The notes under the pieces: model-generated
The model's database searches: none
Told to the model about the DNA's origin: nothing
What the model saw: only the letters and a program-made list of their open reading frames with translations
Origin: Stygiolobus sp. CP850M
GTDB lineage: Archaea; Thermoproteota; Thermoprotei_A; Sulfolobales; Sulfolobaceae
DNA length: 24,000 bases
NCBI RefSeq assembly: GCF_037389425.1
Contig: NZ_JBBHKR010000043.1
Location: forward strand, 1 to 24,000
Direction: 5' to 3'
Part shown: one piece after another, positions 1,946 to 16,906 of the stretch
How positions within the stretch are numbered: position 1 is the stretch's first letter
How the letters are laid out: every line of letters starts with the position of its first letter
Translations under genes and position numbers: made by a program

Positions 1946-2554
1946 ATGATAATAGATGAGTTAGTTAATTCAAAAATCATTGACACATTATCACATAAGC
2001 GTGAGGATAAAGTATTATACGTCACAGATCTAGTTAGATGTGCTCTTAAGATAAAATACGAAGAAAAATATAAGGAACTTTCCTTAGCAGAGTCGATTAA
2101 ACCGTCTGCAATTCTCGGGGATTTAGTCCATGAAGGGCTGGAGAAATTCCTAGCTGAGAAATTTAATGCAAAGTTGGAAGTAGAAAGTGAGAAGCAAGTT
2201 ACATTAGCTCAAGACGTGTACAAAATAAAAGGCAGAGCAGACGCGATCATTGAGGGAGAAAAGAAAATAGTTATAGAAATTAAAACAGCTAGAGCTGATA
2301 AAGGCTTACCGTTAGAACATCATAAACAGCAGTTGAGGTTATACTTGTGGCTTTTCGACGCCAATGAAGGGATCCTAGTCTACATTACCCCGGATAGAGT
2401 AACGGAATACAGTATCCGTAATAAGGCTGAGGACGACGAAGTGATAAGACTTGTAGAGGAGACAATCAAATTGCTGAAAACCCCCCGATATAACTGGGAA
2501 TGCAGTTATTGCATCTTTAACGTAATATGCCCAGAGTCTAGGAAAAACAAGTGA
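1946..2554 (+). CDS. Cas4-family PD-(D/E)xK nuclease with 4-Cys (Fe-S) cluster, not CRISPR-associated
   Basis: The 202-aa product carries Cys32, GDLVHEG, GRAD (Asp99), EIK (Glu111/Lys113), QQLRLY and a C-terminal C186-x2-C189-x5-C195. This is the full RecB-like/Cas4 (DUF83) motif set. The gene starts 2 nt after the GT2 stop. Confidence 0.8.
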   Translation: MIIDELVNSKIIDTLSHKREDKVLYVTDLVRCALKIKYEEKYKELSLAESIKPSAILGDLVHEGLEKFLAEKFNAKLEVESEKQVTLAQDVYKIKGRADAIIEGEKKIVIEIKTARADKGLPLEHHKQQLRLYLWLFDANEGILVYITPDRVTEYSIRNKAEDDEVIRLVEETIKLLKTPRYNWECSYCIFNVICPESRKNK

Positions 2555-4777: not shown

Positions 4778-5473
4778 ATGAAGATCATATTCTTAGGGAC
4801 TGGTGCTGGAGCCACCTTCGGGAGCAAGAGAATGAAAGCGGGTATTTACGTAAAGGGAGAAAAAAATTCCGTAGTCTTAGACATGGGTACTGGAGCTAAT
4901 TTTAAGTTAGAAGATATGGGATTACTGGACTTTTCGACATTATTCATTACACACTTACACATCGATCACTTTAACGGAATTTTCGACCATCTAGTCCAGA
5001 GAAAACTGAAGGGATTACAGACCTTGAGGATATATTCCCCTAAGGGGCTCACGGAAGTCCTTAACACGTATATAAAAAGCGGAAATAACATATACGCTGA
5101 AGTAATAGAATCTGATTTGCCTTCGGCGGAAGTAGGTGAACTTCAAGTTTACTCTATAAAAGGATGTCATAGCATATATGATGTAGCGTATGTAATTTCC
5201 GACGGTAAGAAGAAAATACTTTACACTGGAGACACAGCTGAACCTTGTGAAGACATTCTTAAAGAGTCCGAAAAAGTAGACTTAGTAATCCACGAGAGCA
5301 GTTGTATAGACGATTGTTCAAAATGGGGGCATACGTCCCTTAAACAACTCATGGAGCTTTTTCCGAGAGAGAAACTAATTCTCACTCACATTCCCGCTCA
5401 AATAGAAGATGAAATTAGAAAATTGGCTAAAGGATATAATATAGCTTTTGATGGTTTTATAATGGATGTGTAG
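4778..5473 (+). CDS. MBL-fold metallo-hydrolase (RNase Z/PhnP-like size, 231 aa)
   Basis: A glycine-rich N-terminus (FLGTGAG) and a THLHIDHFNG HxHxDH motif are followed by downstream D/H residues (TGDT, HES, GHTS). Confidence 0.75.
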   Translation: MKIIFLGTGAGATFGSKRMKAGIYVKGEKNSVVLDMGTGANFKLEDMGLLDFSTLFITHLHIDHFNGIFDHLVQRKLKGLQTLRIYSPKGLTEVLNTYIKSGNNIYAEVIESDLPSAEVGELQVYSIKGCHSIYDVAYVISDGKKKILYTGDTAEPCEDILKESEKVDLVIHESSCIDDCSKWGHTSLKQLMELFPREKLILTHIPAQIEDEIRKLAKGYNIAFDGFIMDV

Positions 5474-6191
5474 ATTACTGGCATTCGACGTAAAAGAGAA
5501 AGTCGAGCTAGAAGTGATTAAGGCCTTCGTAAATGCTACTAAAAATGACATTTATTTTAAATATATCTCACATTCTCACGGTTGGGGAATATCGGCGATA
5601 ATTGAAATAAACGGTAAACACAAGCTAGTCTATTATAAATCTCCGGAACCAATATACGAGGATGAGTTCTTTTACAATATTGTTAACTTACTAAAAGGTG
5701 ATAGGGTTACCGGTATAATCCACGCTAGAAAGGCTGGGAAAGAATTCCTTATAGGGTTAAGGCATAACCACCCCTACCACATGAAAACTAAGACCCATGA
5801 CCTTTACTTCGCTCATAACGGTTCAATAAACAGGAAGGCTTTCAGCCAGCCAGATTACCCTAGTACGGATAGCTATCTATTCTTTCTGGAGTTAGTTAAG
5901 GCCTTAGAGAGCTCTCAACAAGGGATAGAAAGAGTTTACAAACAAGTAATAGATAATTTAAGTAAGTTCTCTTCAAGCTTAAATTCGGCTCTCCTTACTT
6001 TTAATGAAATAGAGGGACCGGTAGTCTACTTCGCTCACTACTATAATAAGGAGAGGATTAAAGAGATGGAAGAATATTATAAAGTGTACAAGTACGGAAA
6101 TTACGTCTTCTCTTCTACGGTAGGATATTATCTTAATAGAGACGTCGAAAGTGTTGAATTGGGAAGAGTAATCAGATTGTTAAATGATTAA
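5466..6191 (+). CDS. class-II (Ntn) glutamine amidotransferase-like protein
   Basis: The product starts MCRLLAF, so Cys2 becomes the N-terminal nucleophile. An HARKA...NHPY...FAHNGSI pattern typical of the Gn_AT_II / YafJ-like fold follows. The gene overlaps the upstream MBL gene by 8 nt. Confidence 0.7.
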   Translation: MCRLLAFDVKEKVELEVIKAFVNATKNDIYFKYISHSHGWGISAIIEINGKHKLVYYKSPEPIYEDEFFYNIVNLLKGDRVTGIIHARKAGKEFLIGLRHNHPYHMKTKTHDLYFAHNGSINRKAFSQPDYPSTDSYLFFLELVKALESSQQGIERVYKQVIDNLSKFSSSLNSALLTFNEIEGPVVYFAHYYNKERIKEMEEYYKVYKYGNYVFSSTVGYYLNRDVESVELGRVIRLLND

Positions 6192-6195
6192 AGAA

Positions 6196-6203
6196 TTTAA
6201 ATA
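6196..6203 (+). promoter_or_regulatory. TATA box for the TnpB-like gene (leaderless transcript)
   Basis: TTTAAATA is centred about 27 nt upstream of the ATG at 6226, immediately after the preceding stop codon. Confidence 0.5.
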
Positions 6204-6225: not shown

Positions 6226-7050
6226 ATGCCAAAAGAAGAGATAGTTGAAGCTAAAATTTTAGACTATGGTAAGCTAAAAACAATATATAGCTCAATCCAA
6301 TTCGCCAGAGCTTATGCTAAAATAGTGAAAGACGGACCACCTCCTAGGGATATACCTAAGGAATTGTACTATCAAGCTCTACAGTCTAATGAAATAAGAT
6401 ATGGACCGCTGAAGGTGATAAACAACGGAAATTTAATCAAGATAGCTGAAGTTAACGCTCTAGTTAAGTCCGATAGAGAAGGAATACCTCTCTACGCTAT
6501 AGTGGATTTCACAGACGGAATCAAAGTATACCTTGCTTATGAAAAGCCAAAGACAGTCGTGGGTGTGGATATCGGTGTAAGACATTTGTTTACTATCGTG
6601 GCAATCAGGGGGACGACACCTTGGAAAGTAAGGTACTGGGGTAATGAAGTCATAATAAACGAAATGATTAAAATTTTAGGAGATCCACAAGGTTTGCCAG
6701 AACTTAAAAACATGAGATCGAAAATAAAAGGAATCGTAGATGAGGCAGTAAAGTTTATAGATGAACTTGAGCCAAAAGTCGTGGCATTAGAAGACTTAAA
6801 ACTATTTGAAGGTAAGGCAGGTCAAGCCCTAAGAGTAGTTGAGGAGATGTTGGAAGAAAGACTGTACAATGCTGGAATTAGGTATAGGAGGTTATCTCCG
6901 TTTAATACAAGCAAGATCTGCTCTAAGTGCGGATATAAGAAAGGAGAAATAATGGGACCTTTATTTGTATGTCCTGCCTGCGGATTTAAGTCCGAAAGAG
7001 ATTATAACGCAGCTTATAATCTAGCTCTTCAGTGCTACTACCAATGCTAG
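6226..7050 (+). CDS. hypercompact TnpB-like (IS200/IS605 OrfB-type) RuvC nuclease with zinc ribbon, 274 aa
   Basis: GVDIG (Asp115), VALEDL (Glu189), FNTSKICSKCG-x13-CPACG (CxxC...CxxC) and SERDYNAAYNLA (Asp259) occur in the canonical TnpB order. Only about 113 residues precede RuvC-I. No tnpA or terminal hairpins were seen. Confidence 0.7.
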   Translation: MPKEEIVEAKILDYGKLKTIYSSIQFARAYAKIVKDGPPPRDIPKELYYQALQSNEIRYGPLKVINNGNLIKIAEVNALVKSDREGIPLYAIVDFTDGIKVYLAYEKPKTVVGVDIGVRHLFTIVAIRGTTPWKVRYWGNEVIINEMIKILGDPQGLPELKNMRSKIKGIVDEAVKFIDELEPKVVALEDLKLFEGKAGQALRVVEEMLEERLYNAGIRYRRLSPFNTSKICSKCGYKKGEIMGPLFVCPACGFKSERDYNAAYNLALQCYYQC

Positions 7051-8030
7051 ATCTTCCAGTACTCCCTTAAGATCCTTTTTTCTGTAGAGAGGAATTCCGC
7101 AAATTTACTTCTCGTTCTATCAGCACTTTTAGTACCCGCATAGTCCTTTTTCTCACCCTCTAACCCCTCTACAAAAGCCTTTATGCCCCTCTTCAAACCT
7201 ACGCTATACCCACCCTCTAATACGGCGTAAAACTTGTTTCTATGTCCTAAAATGCCTAACGCATTATAAGTCCTTTCGGTAGCCCTAATACTAGCCAATC
7301 CGTCATCTTCGAAGGCGTCAAAACCGGCTGAAAATGCTATGAGTGTCGGTTTAAAGTCGTCTAATATTGATTGGATTATAGGGAATAAATCCTCATATAA
7401 ATCATCCCCAGCCAGTGGTGGTAAAAGGAGATTAACCTTTGTACCTTTAGCTTCTCCCCCACCTATCATGTCAGGAAAACCGGTCCCAGGGTAAAGGGTA
7501 TGAGGATCTTGATGAATATCTATGTGCACGACATCTGGGTTTTCCCAGAAGATTTCTTGTGTACCGTTGCCATAATGAACGTCAAAGTCTATGATAGCTA
7601 CTCTTTTCAACTTCAATTTCAAGATGGGGTAAGCTATGTTGTTAAAGATACAAAAACCTAAAGTAGGTGCTCCTAAAGCTCTACCTGATTTACCCGCGTG
7701 ATGACCCGGAGGGCGAACTAAAGCAAAACCCTTATTTTTATATGCTGTTAACGCTCCGCCTAACGCTAACAATGCAGAATTCCACGTGTGTTCGTTAGTA
7801 TATGTATCGGCGTCTAACCATTCTCCTCTCTTGGAAGATAATTTTACTAGATTTACGTAGTTATCGTCATGAACGACTTTTGGCTCGTCCTCACCTACTT
7901 GATCTGGAGAGATAATAGGATTCTCTTTCAGGACTGACAACACAGTCTTTAATCTTTCGGGATTCTCAGCGTGACTAGAGGGATGTTGATGAAGAAGATA
8001 TGTCTCGGAGTAAACTAGTGGTATTTTCAT
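7047..8030 (-). CDS. histone deacetylase-superfamily amidohydrolase (AcuC / acetylpolyamine deacetylase-like)
   Basis: VRPPGHHAG (catalytic His pair), DFDVHYGNGTQ (metal ligands) and LEGGYS are present. The 327-aa length is typical of prokaryotic HDAC-like enzymes. Confidence 0.85.
   Translation of the reverse strand: MKIPLVYSETYLLHQHPSSHAENPERLKTVLSVLKENPIISPDQVGEDEPKVVHDDNYVNLVKLSSKRGEWLDADTYTNEHTWNSALLALGGALTAYKNKGFALVRPPGHHAGKSGRALGAPTLGFCIFNNIAYPILKLKLKRVAIIDFDVHYGNGTQEIFWENPDVVHIDIHQDPHTLYPGTGFPDMIGGGEAKGTKVNLLLPPLAGDDLYEDLFPIIQSILDDFKPTLIAFSAGFDAFEDDGLASIRATERTYNALGILGHRNKFYAVLEGGYSVGLKRGIKAFVEGLEGEKKDYAGTKSADRTRSKFAEFLSTEKRILREYWKI
7050..7081 (+). terminator. weak hairpin plus T6 tract downstream of the TnpB-like stop
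   Basis: GATCTT (7050-7055) pairs with AAGATC (7069-7074) around a 13-nt loop, followed by TTTTTT (7076-7081). Oligo-T tracts act as archaeal terminators. The element lies inside the opposing deacetylase CDS, and the stem is only 6 bp. Confidence 0.25.
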
Positions 8031-15135: not shown

Positions 15136-15495
15136 ATGAAGCTCTATTTTCCTATACTGGCTTCAGACGTAACAATAATTTTAGGTACAATACTCTTGCT
15201 CAATAAAGTCCCTTTTTTAATCACTGTTGGTAGTATAATAGACATAGTTTTGCTTACCATTGCCGCTTACCTAATTTATAAGGGCATAAAATATTCGGAT
15301 GTTCTGGGATTTGTCTTAAGTATAATTCAAATTCTAGGTAATTCTACTGATCCAGTTCATTTGAGAGCACTGAACGAGTTTGGCACAACATTATACTTGT
15401 CTATTTTAGACATCTTAATGGTGTTGTCATTTTACGTGTTTCCCCTAACCTACATAACTATGTTTCTTATAAAGAGAAAAAATCCCGTCACTTAA
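15136..15495 (+). CDS. small integral membrane protein (3-4 predicted TM segments)
   Basis: Four hydrophobic stretches occur across 119 aa. ACATAAAAC is centred about 28 nt upstream of the ATG. Confidence 0.5.
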
Positions 15496-16883
15496 CCCTC
15501 ATATTCTACTGGGTCTTTTAATCCGTTAATTTCGAACGCTTTTTTCCTCATGTAACATGGGCCACATCTACCGCAATGTTTTTCGCCACCCTCATAACAA
15601 CTCCACGTTAAATGTAACGGTGCACCTATCTCTACACCTAACTTAACTATTTCATGTTTTACTAAATTCCCTACGGGCATTAACACGTCAACTTTCTTGT
15701 TAGGACCAGTAGCATAAGGTGATAGTTTAGCGAAAAGTCTCACGAATTCCATCTCGTTATCAGGATAAGCTCCTGCTTCCTCGAGATTTATTCCCGAGGC
15801 TATTGCATCATATCCATGTGCCTCAGCAATAGCCAATGCTACGGAAAAGAATACTAGGTTTCTAGCGGGAACCCACTCGTGTGCGAACTCTGCTCCTTCT
15901 TCACCTCTTCTGTCCTTCACTATTTCTCCTCCACCCTTAAGAAGTGTCGAGTGTCCAACAATCTTGAAAAGATCCGTGTCTATCATCATGTAAGGGACTT
16001 GCAAAAATTCAGCGATCTTCTTCACTGCCTCTTTCTCTTTTTCCTCGGCTTTGTGGTGGTAATTGAAGTGGAGTAAAGTCACCTCATATCCATTCTTAAG
16101 TAAATAGGTAGCTGCAACAGTCGAGTCAAGCCCTCCACTAGCTATCACTAAAGCCTTCTTCCTTGGTTTCTCATCTAACAACGGGATTTCCTTTATTCCC
16201 ATATTGTTTGATACTTTAACAATCGAGTAGGGATTTAGCTTCCTGACAAAGACACTGTCTAAGGGCCTAATACTGAAATATTCGTCTAAAGAGGTAAAGA
16301 ATATAGCCCCTAATTCTTTATCGTACATCATATAAACAGGTTTAAAGTTTTGAGCGACGTAAATCGTGTTGGGATCTGACTTGTCACCTATTATGAAAGC
16401 AAAGCTGCCCTTTACATCTTGAAGAATCGTTTTCAAGACTTCAAGGTCTCCGTTCCATGCCTTATCCAAGATGGGAGGAATAACACTGCTATCTATCTTA
16501 CTTTGCTTCCTGACTTTGTACTTCTTTTCGAGTTCTGAGTCATTAGCAATTATGCCGTTATGAGTAACGATATACCGTTCTCCTTCAAATGGCTGAATCT
16601 CGTTATAGTTCTTATCCTTTACATATTCGGTTGTGGGTTCAGCCCTATTATTTGCTATGACAACTCTGCTGTTTTCATCTAAAACCCCTTTTAACTTCTC
16701 CTCATTTAACGAAGGTCTTCCGACTGACTTTACTACCTTAGTCTTACCGTCAATCTGAATTACTGCAACTCCGAAACTATCCCTTCCTCTATCTTCAGCT
16801 TTCTTCAAAATCTCTATAAGCTTAGCTTCGATCTCCTTGTAGTTCTCATGTTTAAGTATAAGTACTCCTGATACACTACACAT
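15492..16883 (-). CDS. GAT-QueC fusion (class-II glutamine amidotransferase + QueC-like PP-loop domain), crenarchaeal archaeosine synthase type
   Basis: The ATG at 16883 gives MCSVSG, so Cys is the N-terminal nucleophile. The C-terminal half has [11 protein letters not shown] (SGGxDS PP-loop) and C-x8-C-x2-C-x2-C ([15 protein letters not shown]), as in QueC. The GAT-QueC family is known to replace ArcS in Crenarchaeota. Confidence 0.85.
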
Positions 16884-16906
16884 TAAAGGCACTTAGCTTA
16901 TAGGTA

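Follow-up and report, generated by a model that had tools for sequence, protein, structure and literature searches.

Features of the mini-TnpB locus

The window analysed is a 24,000-nucleotide (nt) stretch of contig NZ_JBBHKR010000043.1 of Stygiolobus sp. CP850M. It contains an open reading frame (ORF) for a 274-amino-acid (aa) protein related to TnpB, here called mini-TnpB. The original prediction, made from the letters of the window, had placed GVDIG, ALEDL, zinc-ribbon and SERDYNAAYNLA motifs in this ORF, and all of them were found in the sequence at the positions claimed (Table 1). The protein was 99% identical (270/274) to WP_156007399.1 of Stygiolobus azoricus and basic, with a pI of 8.9-9.3 and a net charge of +7 to +12. 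The ORF almost certainly belongs to the GATase-TnpB clade, in which tnpB adjoins a glutamine amidotransferase (GATase) gene (Altae-Tran, Shmakov, Makarova, Wolf, Kannan, Zhang and Koonin, 2023, PNAS 120:e2308224120; PMC10691335).

Upstream of the gene lay a TATA-like box, and in the orthologous upstream regions that were read a TATA-like A/T box stood at a similar distance, even where another small ORF ended there. The position of the box fits a promoter of the gene's own and a leaderless mRNA, which mini-TnpB probably has. At the other end, the predicted overlap of 4 nt between the mini-TnpB stop and the convergent Hist_deacetyl gene was verified. The deacetylase gene is outside the system, yet it sits where the omega RNA of a TnpB would lie.

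Table 1. Positions of mini-TnpB, its domains and catalytic residues, its neighbours in the window, and the small ORF found at orthologous loci (L numbers; positions are those of the respective locus)
Feature	Position	Strand	Remarks
mini-TnpB coding sequence (CDS)	6226..7050	+	274 aa plus stop, ATG start; Stygiolobus azoricus-type orthologue, almost certainly of the GATase-TnpB clade
TATA-like box TTTAAATA	6196-6203	+	-30..-23 from ATG, in the 34-nt spacer to the upstream gene
N-terminal domain, residues 1-108	6226..6549	+	WED-like beta-barrel: strands 4-13 and 58-106
Two-helix stub, residues 17-53	6274-6384	+	Interrupts the WED-like barrel where TnpB has REC
RuvC nuclease domain, residues 110-274	6553..7047	+	Alignment to TnpB profile, Foldseek
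Catalytic Asp D115	6568-6570	+	Within GVDIG
Catalytic Glu E189	6790-6792	+	Within ALEDL
Zinc ribbon CxxC-x13-CxxC (C232, C235, C249, C252)	6919..6981	+	TNB domain inserted in RuvC
Catalytic Asp D259	7000-7002	+	Within SERDYNAAYNLA
C-terminal tail C270-Y-Y-x-C274	7033..7047	+	At least 90% conserved in family alignment
Class-II (N-terminal nucleophile, Ntn; Cys2) GATase	5466..6191	+	Pfam GATase_4, E=4.5e-7; ends 34 nt before the ATG
Metallo-beta-lactamase-fold (MBL) gene	4778..5473	+	Pfam Lactamase_B, Lactamase_B_2; part of conserved block
Convergent histone-deacetylase-family gene	7047..8030	-	Pfam Hist_deacetyl, E=1.6e-63
Stand-alone Cas4-like PD-(D/E)XK nuclease	1946-2554	+	PADLOC Cas4, E=9e-30; without nearby CRISPR array or cas1/cas2
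87-89 aa ORF, L002	5708-5974		
87-89 aa ORF, L003	5671-5934		
87-89 aa ORF, L005	5715-5975		
87-89 aa ORF, L007	725-985		
87-89 aa ORF, L011	5708-5974		
87-89 aa ORF, L022	3671-3937		
87-89 aa ORF, L023	3718-3981		

Homology to TnpB and domain architecture

Single-sequence methods recognised only the C-terminal 60-70 residues of mini-TnpB as TnpB-like, and for this reason the protein is named 'zinc ribbon domain-containing protein' in RefSeq. Pfam PF07282 (Cas12f1-like_TNB) matched residues 206-266 (E=1.8e-16; 60.5 bits vs a curated cutoff of 26.3), and PDB sequence matches to Cas12f and TnpB covered residues 204-271 only. Scores for OrfB_IS605 (Pfam PF01385, 13.4 bits; cutoff 30.5), guided_TnpB (NCBIfam NF040570, 63 bits; cutoff 100) and IS200_TnpB (NCBIfam NF038281, 30.7 bits; cutoff 425) all lay below threshold.

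Profile-profile comparison by hhalign of 24 orthologues against 25 full-length TnpBs gave a probability of 99.9% (E=1.4e-36), with residues 92-274 of the query aligned to 167-375 of the TnpB profile. GVDIG, EDL and RDxNAAxN fell on the TnpB RuvC-I, RuvC-II and RuvC-III columns. D115, E189, D259 and all four zinc-ribbon Cys were invariant in 24/24 orthologues, as were R119, T123, Q155, G156, R258, N261, A262, A263 and N265, and the motifs flanking the triad (GxDxGxRH, ED/ENL and RDxNAAxNxA) did not vary across the family. The predicted TnpB order of RuvC-I, RuvC-II, zinc ribbon and RuvC-III with an intact D-E-D triad was upheld by this alignment, and the matching columns place the three acidic residues on the RuvC catalytic positions. 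Residues 1-91 showed no alignment to TnpB in the sequence profiles. Only about 113 residues precede RuvC-I in mini-TnpB, compared with about 190 in the TnpB profile. When full-length TnpBs were used in tblastn, alignments began at TnpB residues about 125-150 and mini-TnpB residues about 49-63, so roughly 80-100 residues are missing.

The AlphaFold2 model of the whole protein, built on the orthologue alignment, had a predicted local distance difference test score (pLDDT) of 89.4. It consisted of a strand (4-13), two helices (17-33 and 45-53), six strands between 58 and 106 and an alpha/beta RuvC domain, with a small beta zinc ribbon at about 226-257 and a terminal helix (258-273) bearing D259. 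The Foldseek comparison that had been proposed as a check returned ISDra2 TnpB and Cas12f as the best PDB matches (ISDra2 TnpB ternary complex 8h1j_A, E=4.8e-12; several Cas12f, about 1e-11). Fanzor2, larger Cas12 proteins and bacterial RuvC resolvases ranked lower (4ld0_B, E=3.1e-5, target-normalised TM-score (TMt) 0.61; 7xhj_A, TMt 0.62). Residues 1-108 modelled alone had a pLDDT of 91.4, and the top four matches of this domain among 350,542 PDB chains were all ISDra2 TnpB. The best of them, 8ex9_A, in which only WED and REC are resolved, was weak but specific (probability 0.96, query-normalised TM-score (TMq) 0.48, E=0.027). Between the first and second WED strands the model contained only the helices 17-33 and 45-53, the REC insertion being cut to about 37 residues. 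The architecture predicted by the model is a WED barrel with REC reduced to a two-helix stub, followed by a complete RuvC-TNB module. The original prediction of a drastically reduced REC/WED part proved right in the shortness of the region before RuvC-I and in the REC stub; the WED domain is retained.

Three smaller features of the protein were noted. An invariant PQG motif with Q155-G156 (6688-6693) lies in the loop that the model predicts with least confidence (pLDDT about 70); this loop sits between the two long helices separating RuvC-I from RuvC-II. That a loop stays invariant where its surroundings vary suggests that it contacts a substrate or partner. The C270/C274 tail is additional to the four zinc-ribbon Cys and is not discussed in the 2023 GATase-TnpB description; its variants CYYQC and CYYTC were near-invariant and were missing from the two most divergent members (the P0035 lineage and HS-7), and the Cys pair may form a disulfide or a second metal site. 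A 16-nt direct repeat, TTAAGTCCGA[T/A]AGAGA, occurred within the ORF at 6464-6479 and 6986-7001 (15/16 identical), the copies encoding KSDRE (residues 81-85) and KSERD (residues 255-259); it is probably due to chance.

Relation to the GATase-TnpB clade and to other systems

The GATase-TnpB clade was described as a Sulfolobaceae group with proteins of about 280 aa that contain only the wedge domain and a catalytically intact RuvC, have no space for a downstream RNA gene and are non-mobile; their function was left open (PMC10691335). The window ORF agreed with this description in its Sulfolobaceae host, its GATase neighbour, its small size with WED and RuvC, its intact catalytic residues, and its immobility with the 4-nt overlap. 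The finding is therefore already known, with the same conclusions, and the novelty implied by the original prediction does not stand. Full-text searches for 'GATase-TnpB', or for TnpB with glutamine amidotransferase and Sulfolobaceae, returned, in the collection searched, PMC10691335 alone and no functional follow-up. New relative to the 2023 description are the negative test for an RNA overlapping the CDS, with working positive controls, the variable downstream neighbour, the extra small ORF in some genera, and the deepest lineages without a GATase neighbour. As the clade itself is a rediscovery, it is the function of mini-TnpB that matters.

Mini-TnpB shares with ISDra2 TnpB and other TnpBs of IS200/IS605 and IS607 the order WED, RuvC-I, RuvC-II, zinc-ribbon TNB and RuvC-III and an aligned D-E-D triad, but it is about 130 residues shorter and its REC consists of two helices. 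Unlike the IS200/IS605 TnpBs, it lies outside any insertion sequence (IS), without TnpA or left and right ends (LE/RE), at a fixed single locus with no omega RNA detectable in silico, and it misses the curated thresholds for the full-length families (NCBIfam, Pfam OrfB_IS605). Cas12f (Cas14, type V-F) is similar in the sequence and fold of RuvC and TNB; mini-TnpB is about half its size and has neither a REC lobe nor a CRISPR array or array-linked adaptation genes. TldR, Sigma-TnpB, flagellin-TnpB and DppD-TnpB are likewise immobilised, host-recruited TnpB derivatives in conserved neighbourhoods. TldR and the other inactive exapted TnpBs have lost their catalytic residues and keep a long guide-encoding 3' region, whereas mini-TnpB keeps the triad and has no guide-encoding 3' region of the TldR kind.

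Non-mobile, very short TnpBs of about 220 aa have also been described in Halobacteria, e.g., WP_004214924.1 of Natrialba magadii (PMC10691335). That group belongs to another archaeal lineage and consists of RuvC only, while mini-TnpB keeps WED, and no close sequence relationship between the two was seen in the plasmid search, where haloarchaeal matches reached at most 30% identity in the RuvC part. The RuvC Holliday-junction resolvase, a homodimer that acts on four-way junctions, has in common with mini-TnpB the RuvC/RNase H fold and acidic catalytic residues, a fold similarity seen throughout TnpB and Cas12; RuvC itself contains neither WED nor TNB.

Distribution, selection and immobility

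A search of 5.8 billion proteins yielded 37 homologues of 206-282 aa, the full-length ones measuring 272-282 aa, and all those bearing an organism name came from Sulfolobales. Orthologues were found in Stygiolobus, Sulfurisphaera, Sulfolobus, Saccharolobus, Metallosphaera, Acidianus, Sulfuracidifex and Ca. Aramenus. Identity to the window protein dropped in step with taxonomic distance (Stygiolobus caldivivus 84%, Sulfurisphaera 62%, S. acidocaldarius 61%, Metallosphaera 50%, Saccharolobus 47-50%). The best match outside the family was a fragment of an ordinary OrfB (E=1e-4). In a profile search of 1.84 billion representatives, seven proteins scored below 1e-30, six full-length family members and one short fragment; beyond these, ordinary TnpBs matched through the RuvC part only. 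Full-length members of the family were confined to Sulfolobales and metagenome contigs. Short TnpB-like proteins of other lineages were also inspected. Comparable compactness was not shown in this set, in which 4/7 lacked a start Met, and one of them (P0084) clustered with a 357-aa protein.

The ratio of nonsynonymous to synonymous substitution rates (dN/dS, Nei-Gojobori) was 0.011-0.087 in pairs with unsaturated dS, which by this sequence measure indicates strong purifying selection on the gene. The genome scan found one locus per assembly, and 22, 22 and 10 further places with the same neighbouring genes, collapsed in the look-up, belonged to S. acidocaldarius, S. solfataricus and S. islandicus, respectively. 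The domestication put forward in the original prediction is borne out by the single locus per assembly, the synteny across Sulfolobaceae genera and dN/dS values of 0.01-0.09.

The predicted position outside any transposon also held. Pfam scans of the neighbouring ORFs detected no Y1 transposase, tnpA or other IS gene, no IS ends or terminal hairpins were found, and the repeats flanking the ORF were short and at chance level. The 24 kb window contained no second TnpB-like sequence, CRISPR array or tandem repeats, and no tRNA association was seen. Among 72,556 plasmids no relative was closer than 30% identity (the haloarchaeal matches lying in the RuvC part only), and none was found among 50,697 phage records; BFVD contained only ordinary TnpB/Fanzor-like proteins. 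PADLOC gave Cas12-type C-terminal matches only for mini-TnpB and none for the GATase or MBL protein.

Search for a cis-encoded omega RNA

Since omega RNAs can overlap CDSs (PMC10691335), codon alignments of 20 distinct mini-TnpB orthologues and 15 deacetylase orthologues were examined for synonymous constraint. Identical codons at identical amino acids were counted in pairs with less than 70-80% aa identity and compared with the expectation from pooled codon usage. The observed/expected ratio was 0.88-1.18 over the mini-TnpB ORF, 0.91-1.06 in codons 199-273, where a TnpB omega RNA scaffold is expected to start, and 0.93-1.05 in the deacetylase over its 60 terminal codons, which lie antisense to the putative omega RNA. 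Three positive controls in neighbouring genes of the same loci gave raised ratios: 1.66 at the PfkB start overlapping the ThiD-like gene, 1.30 at the MBL end overlapping the GATase start, and 1.33-1.41 where PfkB ends before the MBL promoter. Genuine overlapping constraint is therefore within reach of the method, and by this codon-identity test there was none in the 3' half of mini-TnpB or in the overlapping 3' end of the deacetylase gene. The upstream GATase, MBL and PfkB genes, checked for an embedded RNA, showed no signals beyond those expected at overlaps and promoters, with a maximum of 1.22 inside GATase. The proportion of synonymous differences (pS) was 0.80-0.88, i.e. saturated, even between Stygiolobus species.

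Plus-strand sequence 6850-7250 folded no better than its shuffles (z=+0.27), and the equivalent regions of nine other loci had folding z values between -2.0 and +1.9. Rfam gave no match at gathering thresholds in the window and none at E<=1 around the gene.

Downstream sequence was unrelated between genera, and five different downstream neighbours occurred across them, with spacers of mostly -4 to +70 nt. Three of them were convergent: the deacetylase, found in Stygiolobus, Sulfurisphaera, Saccharolobus and Acidianus, a metallophosphoesterase (S. acidocaldarius) and an alcohol dehydrogenase (P0035 lineage). The other two were co-directional, namely an M24 peptidase, found in Metallosphaera and Aramenus, and an NPCBM-like gene (Sulfuracidifex).

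A cis-encoded omega RNA is unlikely because synonymous constraint, excess structure and Rfam matches were lacking and the downstream neighbour was variable; in the canonical position, a conserved one appears very unlikely from these sequence comparisons. The idea of an RNA-guided protein in the original prediction found no support at that position, which has neither conserved sequence or structure nor a conserved downstream context. The negative CDS-overlap test closes a loophole of the 2023 description and narrows the search to trans-encoded RNAs or none.

Proposed function

Taken as a whole, the explanation to which we give a slight preference is that the window ORF is a GATase-TnpB orthologue serving as a host nuclease without a canonical cis-encoded guide. 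An early member of the Sulfolobaceae would have acquired a TnpB derivative as a fixed part of its chromosome, and inheritance in that position would since have been vertical. The gene would be transcribed from its own promoter, probably as a leaderless mRNA, and its RuvC site would cut DNA. The WED and zinc-ribbon surfaces would hold the substrate, probably single-stranded or branched DNA; this is a guess from the behaviour of TnpB and Cas12, whose RuvC site cleaves the single strands that enter it. Either the protein itself or a protein partner would select the substrate, and not a canonical cis-encoded omega RNA guide. That the enzyme acts with no guide RNA of any kind is a proposition on which we are evenly divided.

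Several points weigh against a guide-free nuclease. Mini-TnpB retains, in conserved form, the WED domain, to which the omega RNA scaffold binds in TnpB, and we know of no member of the superfamily for which guide-independent TnpB activity has been demonstrated. The missing conserved cis element is compatible with a trans-encoded RNA, and also with a fast-evolving RNA that keeps its structure but not its sequence. The basic charge is expected of a nucleic-acid binder of either kind. Two divergent orthologues add to these points. In Sulfolobales archaeon HS-7, about 580 nt of non-coding DNA lie downstream of the gene. In locus L026 of the deep-branching P0067 lineage, a 163-nt AT-rich spacer (5859-6022) folded better than shuffles (z = -2.6 to -2.8) and contained three short hairpins, the first right after the stop; this was the only locus with such a signal, and the spacer could be a terminator, a promoter region or a remnant RNA.

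These points lead to the alternative that mini-TnpB is still RNA-guided through a non-canonical guide, which we think has a limited chance of being correct. The guide would be a trans-encoded RNA (e.g., the omega RNA of a resident IS200/IS605 or IS607), another abundant small RNA or an RNA cut from the gene's own mRNA, and the two-helix stub with WED would suffice for a short guide-target duplex. In keeping with this, WED is retained and folds confidently with the RNA-binding WED/REC of ISDra2 TnpB as its best matches, TNB and RuvC are fully TnpB-like, and the protein is basic. Recently mobile TnpB elements are reported from Sulfolobus in the literature, so omega RNAs should exist in these cells; such RNAs can overlap CDSs (PMC10691335), and the downstream spacer of L026 is structured and AT-rich (z = -2.6). 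However, REC is essentially absent, no synonymous-site ratio in the ORF exceeded 1.18 against 1.3-1.7 in the positive controls, and there was no excess structure, no Rfam match and no relationship of downstream sequence between genera. In TnpB and Cas12f, REC cradles the guide-target heteroduplex. A fixed host gene relying family-wide on RNAs of unstable mobile elements would also be an odd arrangement.

That mini-TnpB, with almost no REC, will prove to be a functional RNA-guided nuclease with a trans-encoded or non-canonical guide we regard as unlikely. Its counterpart would be the first TnpB-superfamily enzyme shown to be guide-free, a conserved DNA-processing nuclease of the Sulfolobaceae host. 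If cutting without a guide is true, it would reveal capacities of the TnpB/Cas12 scaffold beyond RNA guidance and would add an uncharacterised conserved nuclease to Sulfolobaceae biology. If an RNA is used, mini-TnpB would be the smallest known RNA-guided nuclease and would set a new lower size limit for programmable nucleases. With orthologues in the genetically tractable S. acidocaldarius (AAY79685.1) and S. islandicus, either answer is directly testable.

Gene neighbourhood and further alternatives

The order MBL, GATase_4 and mini-TnpB was retained in 23/25 distinct orthologous loci. The two loci without a GATase next to mini-TnpB, those of HS-7 (L010) and of the P0067 lineage (L026), represent the deepest lineages and keep all motifs. 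The 8-nt overlap of the MBL stop with the GATase start suggests an operon, and the two genes are probably co-translated. In seven loci of Acidianus, Aramenus and Sulfuracidifex type, GATase and mini-TnpB were split by a conserved 87-89 aa ORF (Table 1) with the consensus ...P.NSVKE..V.K......SS.DN......EG.PQ.L....LQ.LK and no match in Pfam. This ORF was missing from the window and from Stygiolobus, Sulfurisphaera, Sulfolobus, Saccharolobus and Metallosphaera; it may represent a partner specific to certain lineages or a mere insertion. Farther upstream there were usually a PfkB kinase, a ThiD-like kinase and a solo Cas4-like nuclease.

This neighbourhood bears on a second alternative, in which mini-TnpB forms a functional unit with the upstream GATase and perhaps the MBL protein. 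The Ntn amidohydrolase would modify or activate the nuclease or its substrate, or the genes would make up a toxin/antidote-like or stress-response module. The GATase lay immediately upstream in the 23/25 loci, with only the small ORF between in seven, and its subfamily occurred almost only in Sulfolobaceae with a divergence similar to that of mini-TnpB, in a search limited to relatives sharing exact words; the 8-nt overlap joins MBL to GATase. On the other hand, a conserved TATA-like box precedes mini-TnpB itself, an unrelated 87-89 aa ORF has been inserted between both genes in several genera, and HS-7 and the P0067 lineage keep an intact-looking mini-TnpB without an adjoining GATase. The thiamine-biosynthesis and sugar-kinase genes of the block are equally syntenic, so the adjacency may reflect general collinearity, and no PADLOC defence model matched the GATase or MBL protein. 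We consider such a unit improbable, and the adjacency of the GATase is more likely historical than mechanistic.

A third alternative is a non-cutting DNA- or RNA-binding regulator, like the TldR repressors or Cas12k/Cas12m, in which the triad would serve metal-dependent binding or folding. Several immobilised TnpB clades are regulators according to the literature, and the fixed chromosomal position and separate promoter suit a housekeeping regulator. All regulatory derivatives known from the literature have lost their catalytic residues, however, whereas the triad and flanking motifs of mini-TnpB are invariant, and no conserved guide or target-like element was found nearby; the chance that mini-TnpB is such a regulator is small.

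The option left open by the original prediction, a decaying, N-terminally truncated in-frame IS200/IS605 orfB remnant without function, agrees with database names such as 'transposase' and 'IS605 OrfB' and with the sub-threshold scores of the full-length TnpB hidden Markov models, but it was rejected as scarcely credible: no parent or near-identical full-length copies were found, the best non-family match had E=1e-4, an intact GATase gene and not a lost TnpB N-terminus lies directly upstream, the N-terminal domain is conserved and folds confidently, the catalytic residues and zinc ligands are invariant, and same-size full-length orthologues occur in at least eight genera under strong purifying selection (dN/dS 0.01-0.09).

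Divergent orthologues and other observations

The HS-7 orthologue (within 5953-7403 of L010) is the most divergent one and lies outside the GATase block. Its first ~30 conserved residues had no in-frame ATG, GTG or TTG, an ATG at 5963 being in another frame, and the C-terminal Cys pair was absent. The end of the gene carried an exact 19-nt tandem duplication (AAAAGGGTATTATTCCTAA x2; 6804-6841), and a 15-nt direct repeat, TATTCCTAAA[A/G]TGAA, flanked the gene at 5953-5967 and 6833-6847. The locus may be a relocation footprint or a decaying gene. The deep-branching P0067 lineage (L026/L027) encodes a 285-aa orthologue without a GATase neighbour. In the metagenome-assembled genome of a member of Sulfolobales (L011), the mini-TnpB frame was broken at 6405-6456, with a 153-aa ORF after which homology resumes, beside an N; this interruption most likely reflects an assembly error and not a pseudogene.

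The orthologue of S. solfataricus P2 corresponds to about SSO0008, because the adjoining gene, SSO0010, is an X-Pro aminopeptidase. In a literature search by locus tag, SSO0007-0009 were not mentioned.

The block of Cas4-like, ThiD-like, PfkB, MBL, GATase and mini-TnpB genes was conserved in Stygiolobus, Sulfolobus, Saccharolobus and Sulfurisphaera. Two relatives of nucleases that are known from mobile elements and from CRISPR systems are thus encoded in a single housekeeping block. The MBL-fold protein had a sub-threshold match to the Anti-Pycsar protein Apyc1, a cyclic-nucleotide phosphodiesterase (27.4 bits vs a cutoff of 50). Elsewhere in the window, the minus strand at 15492-16892 encodes a 466-aa fusion of a class-II GATase domain with QueC (GATase_7 plus QueC). 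It is the second Ntn-type GATase in the window, unrelated to the neighbour of mini-TnpB, and presumably resembles the GAT-QueC type of crenarchaeal archaeosine synthesis.

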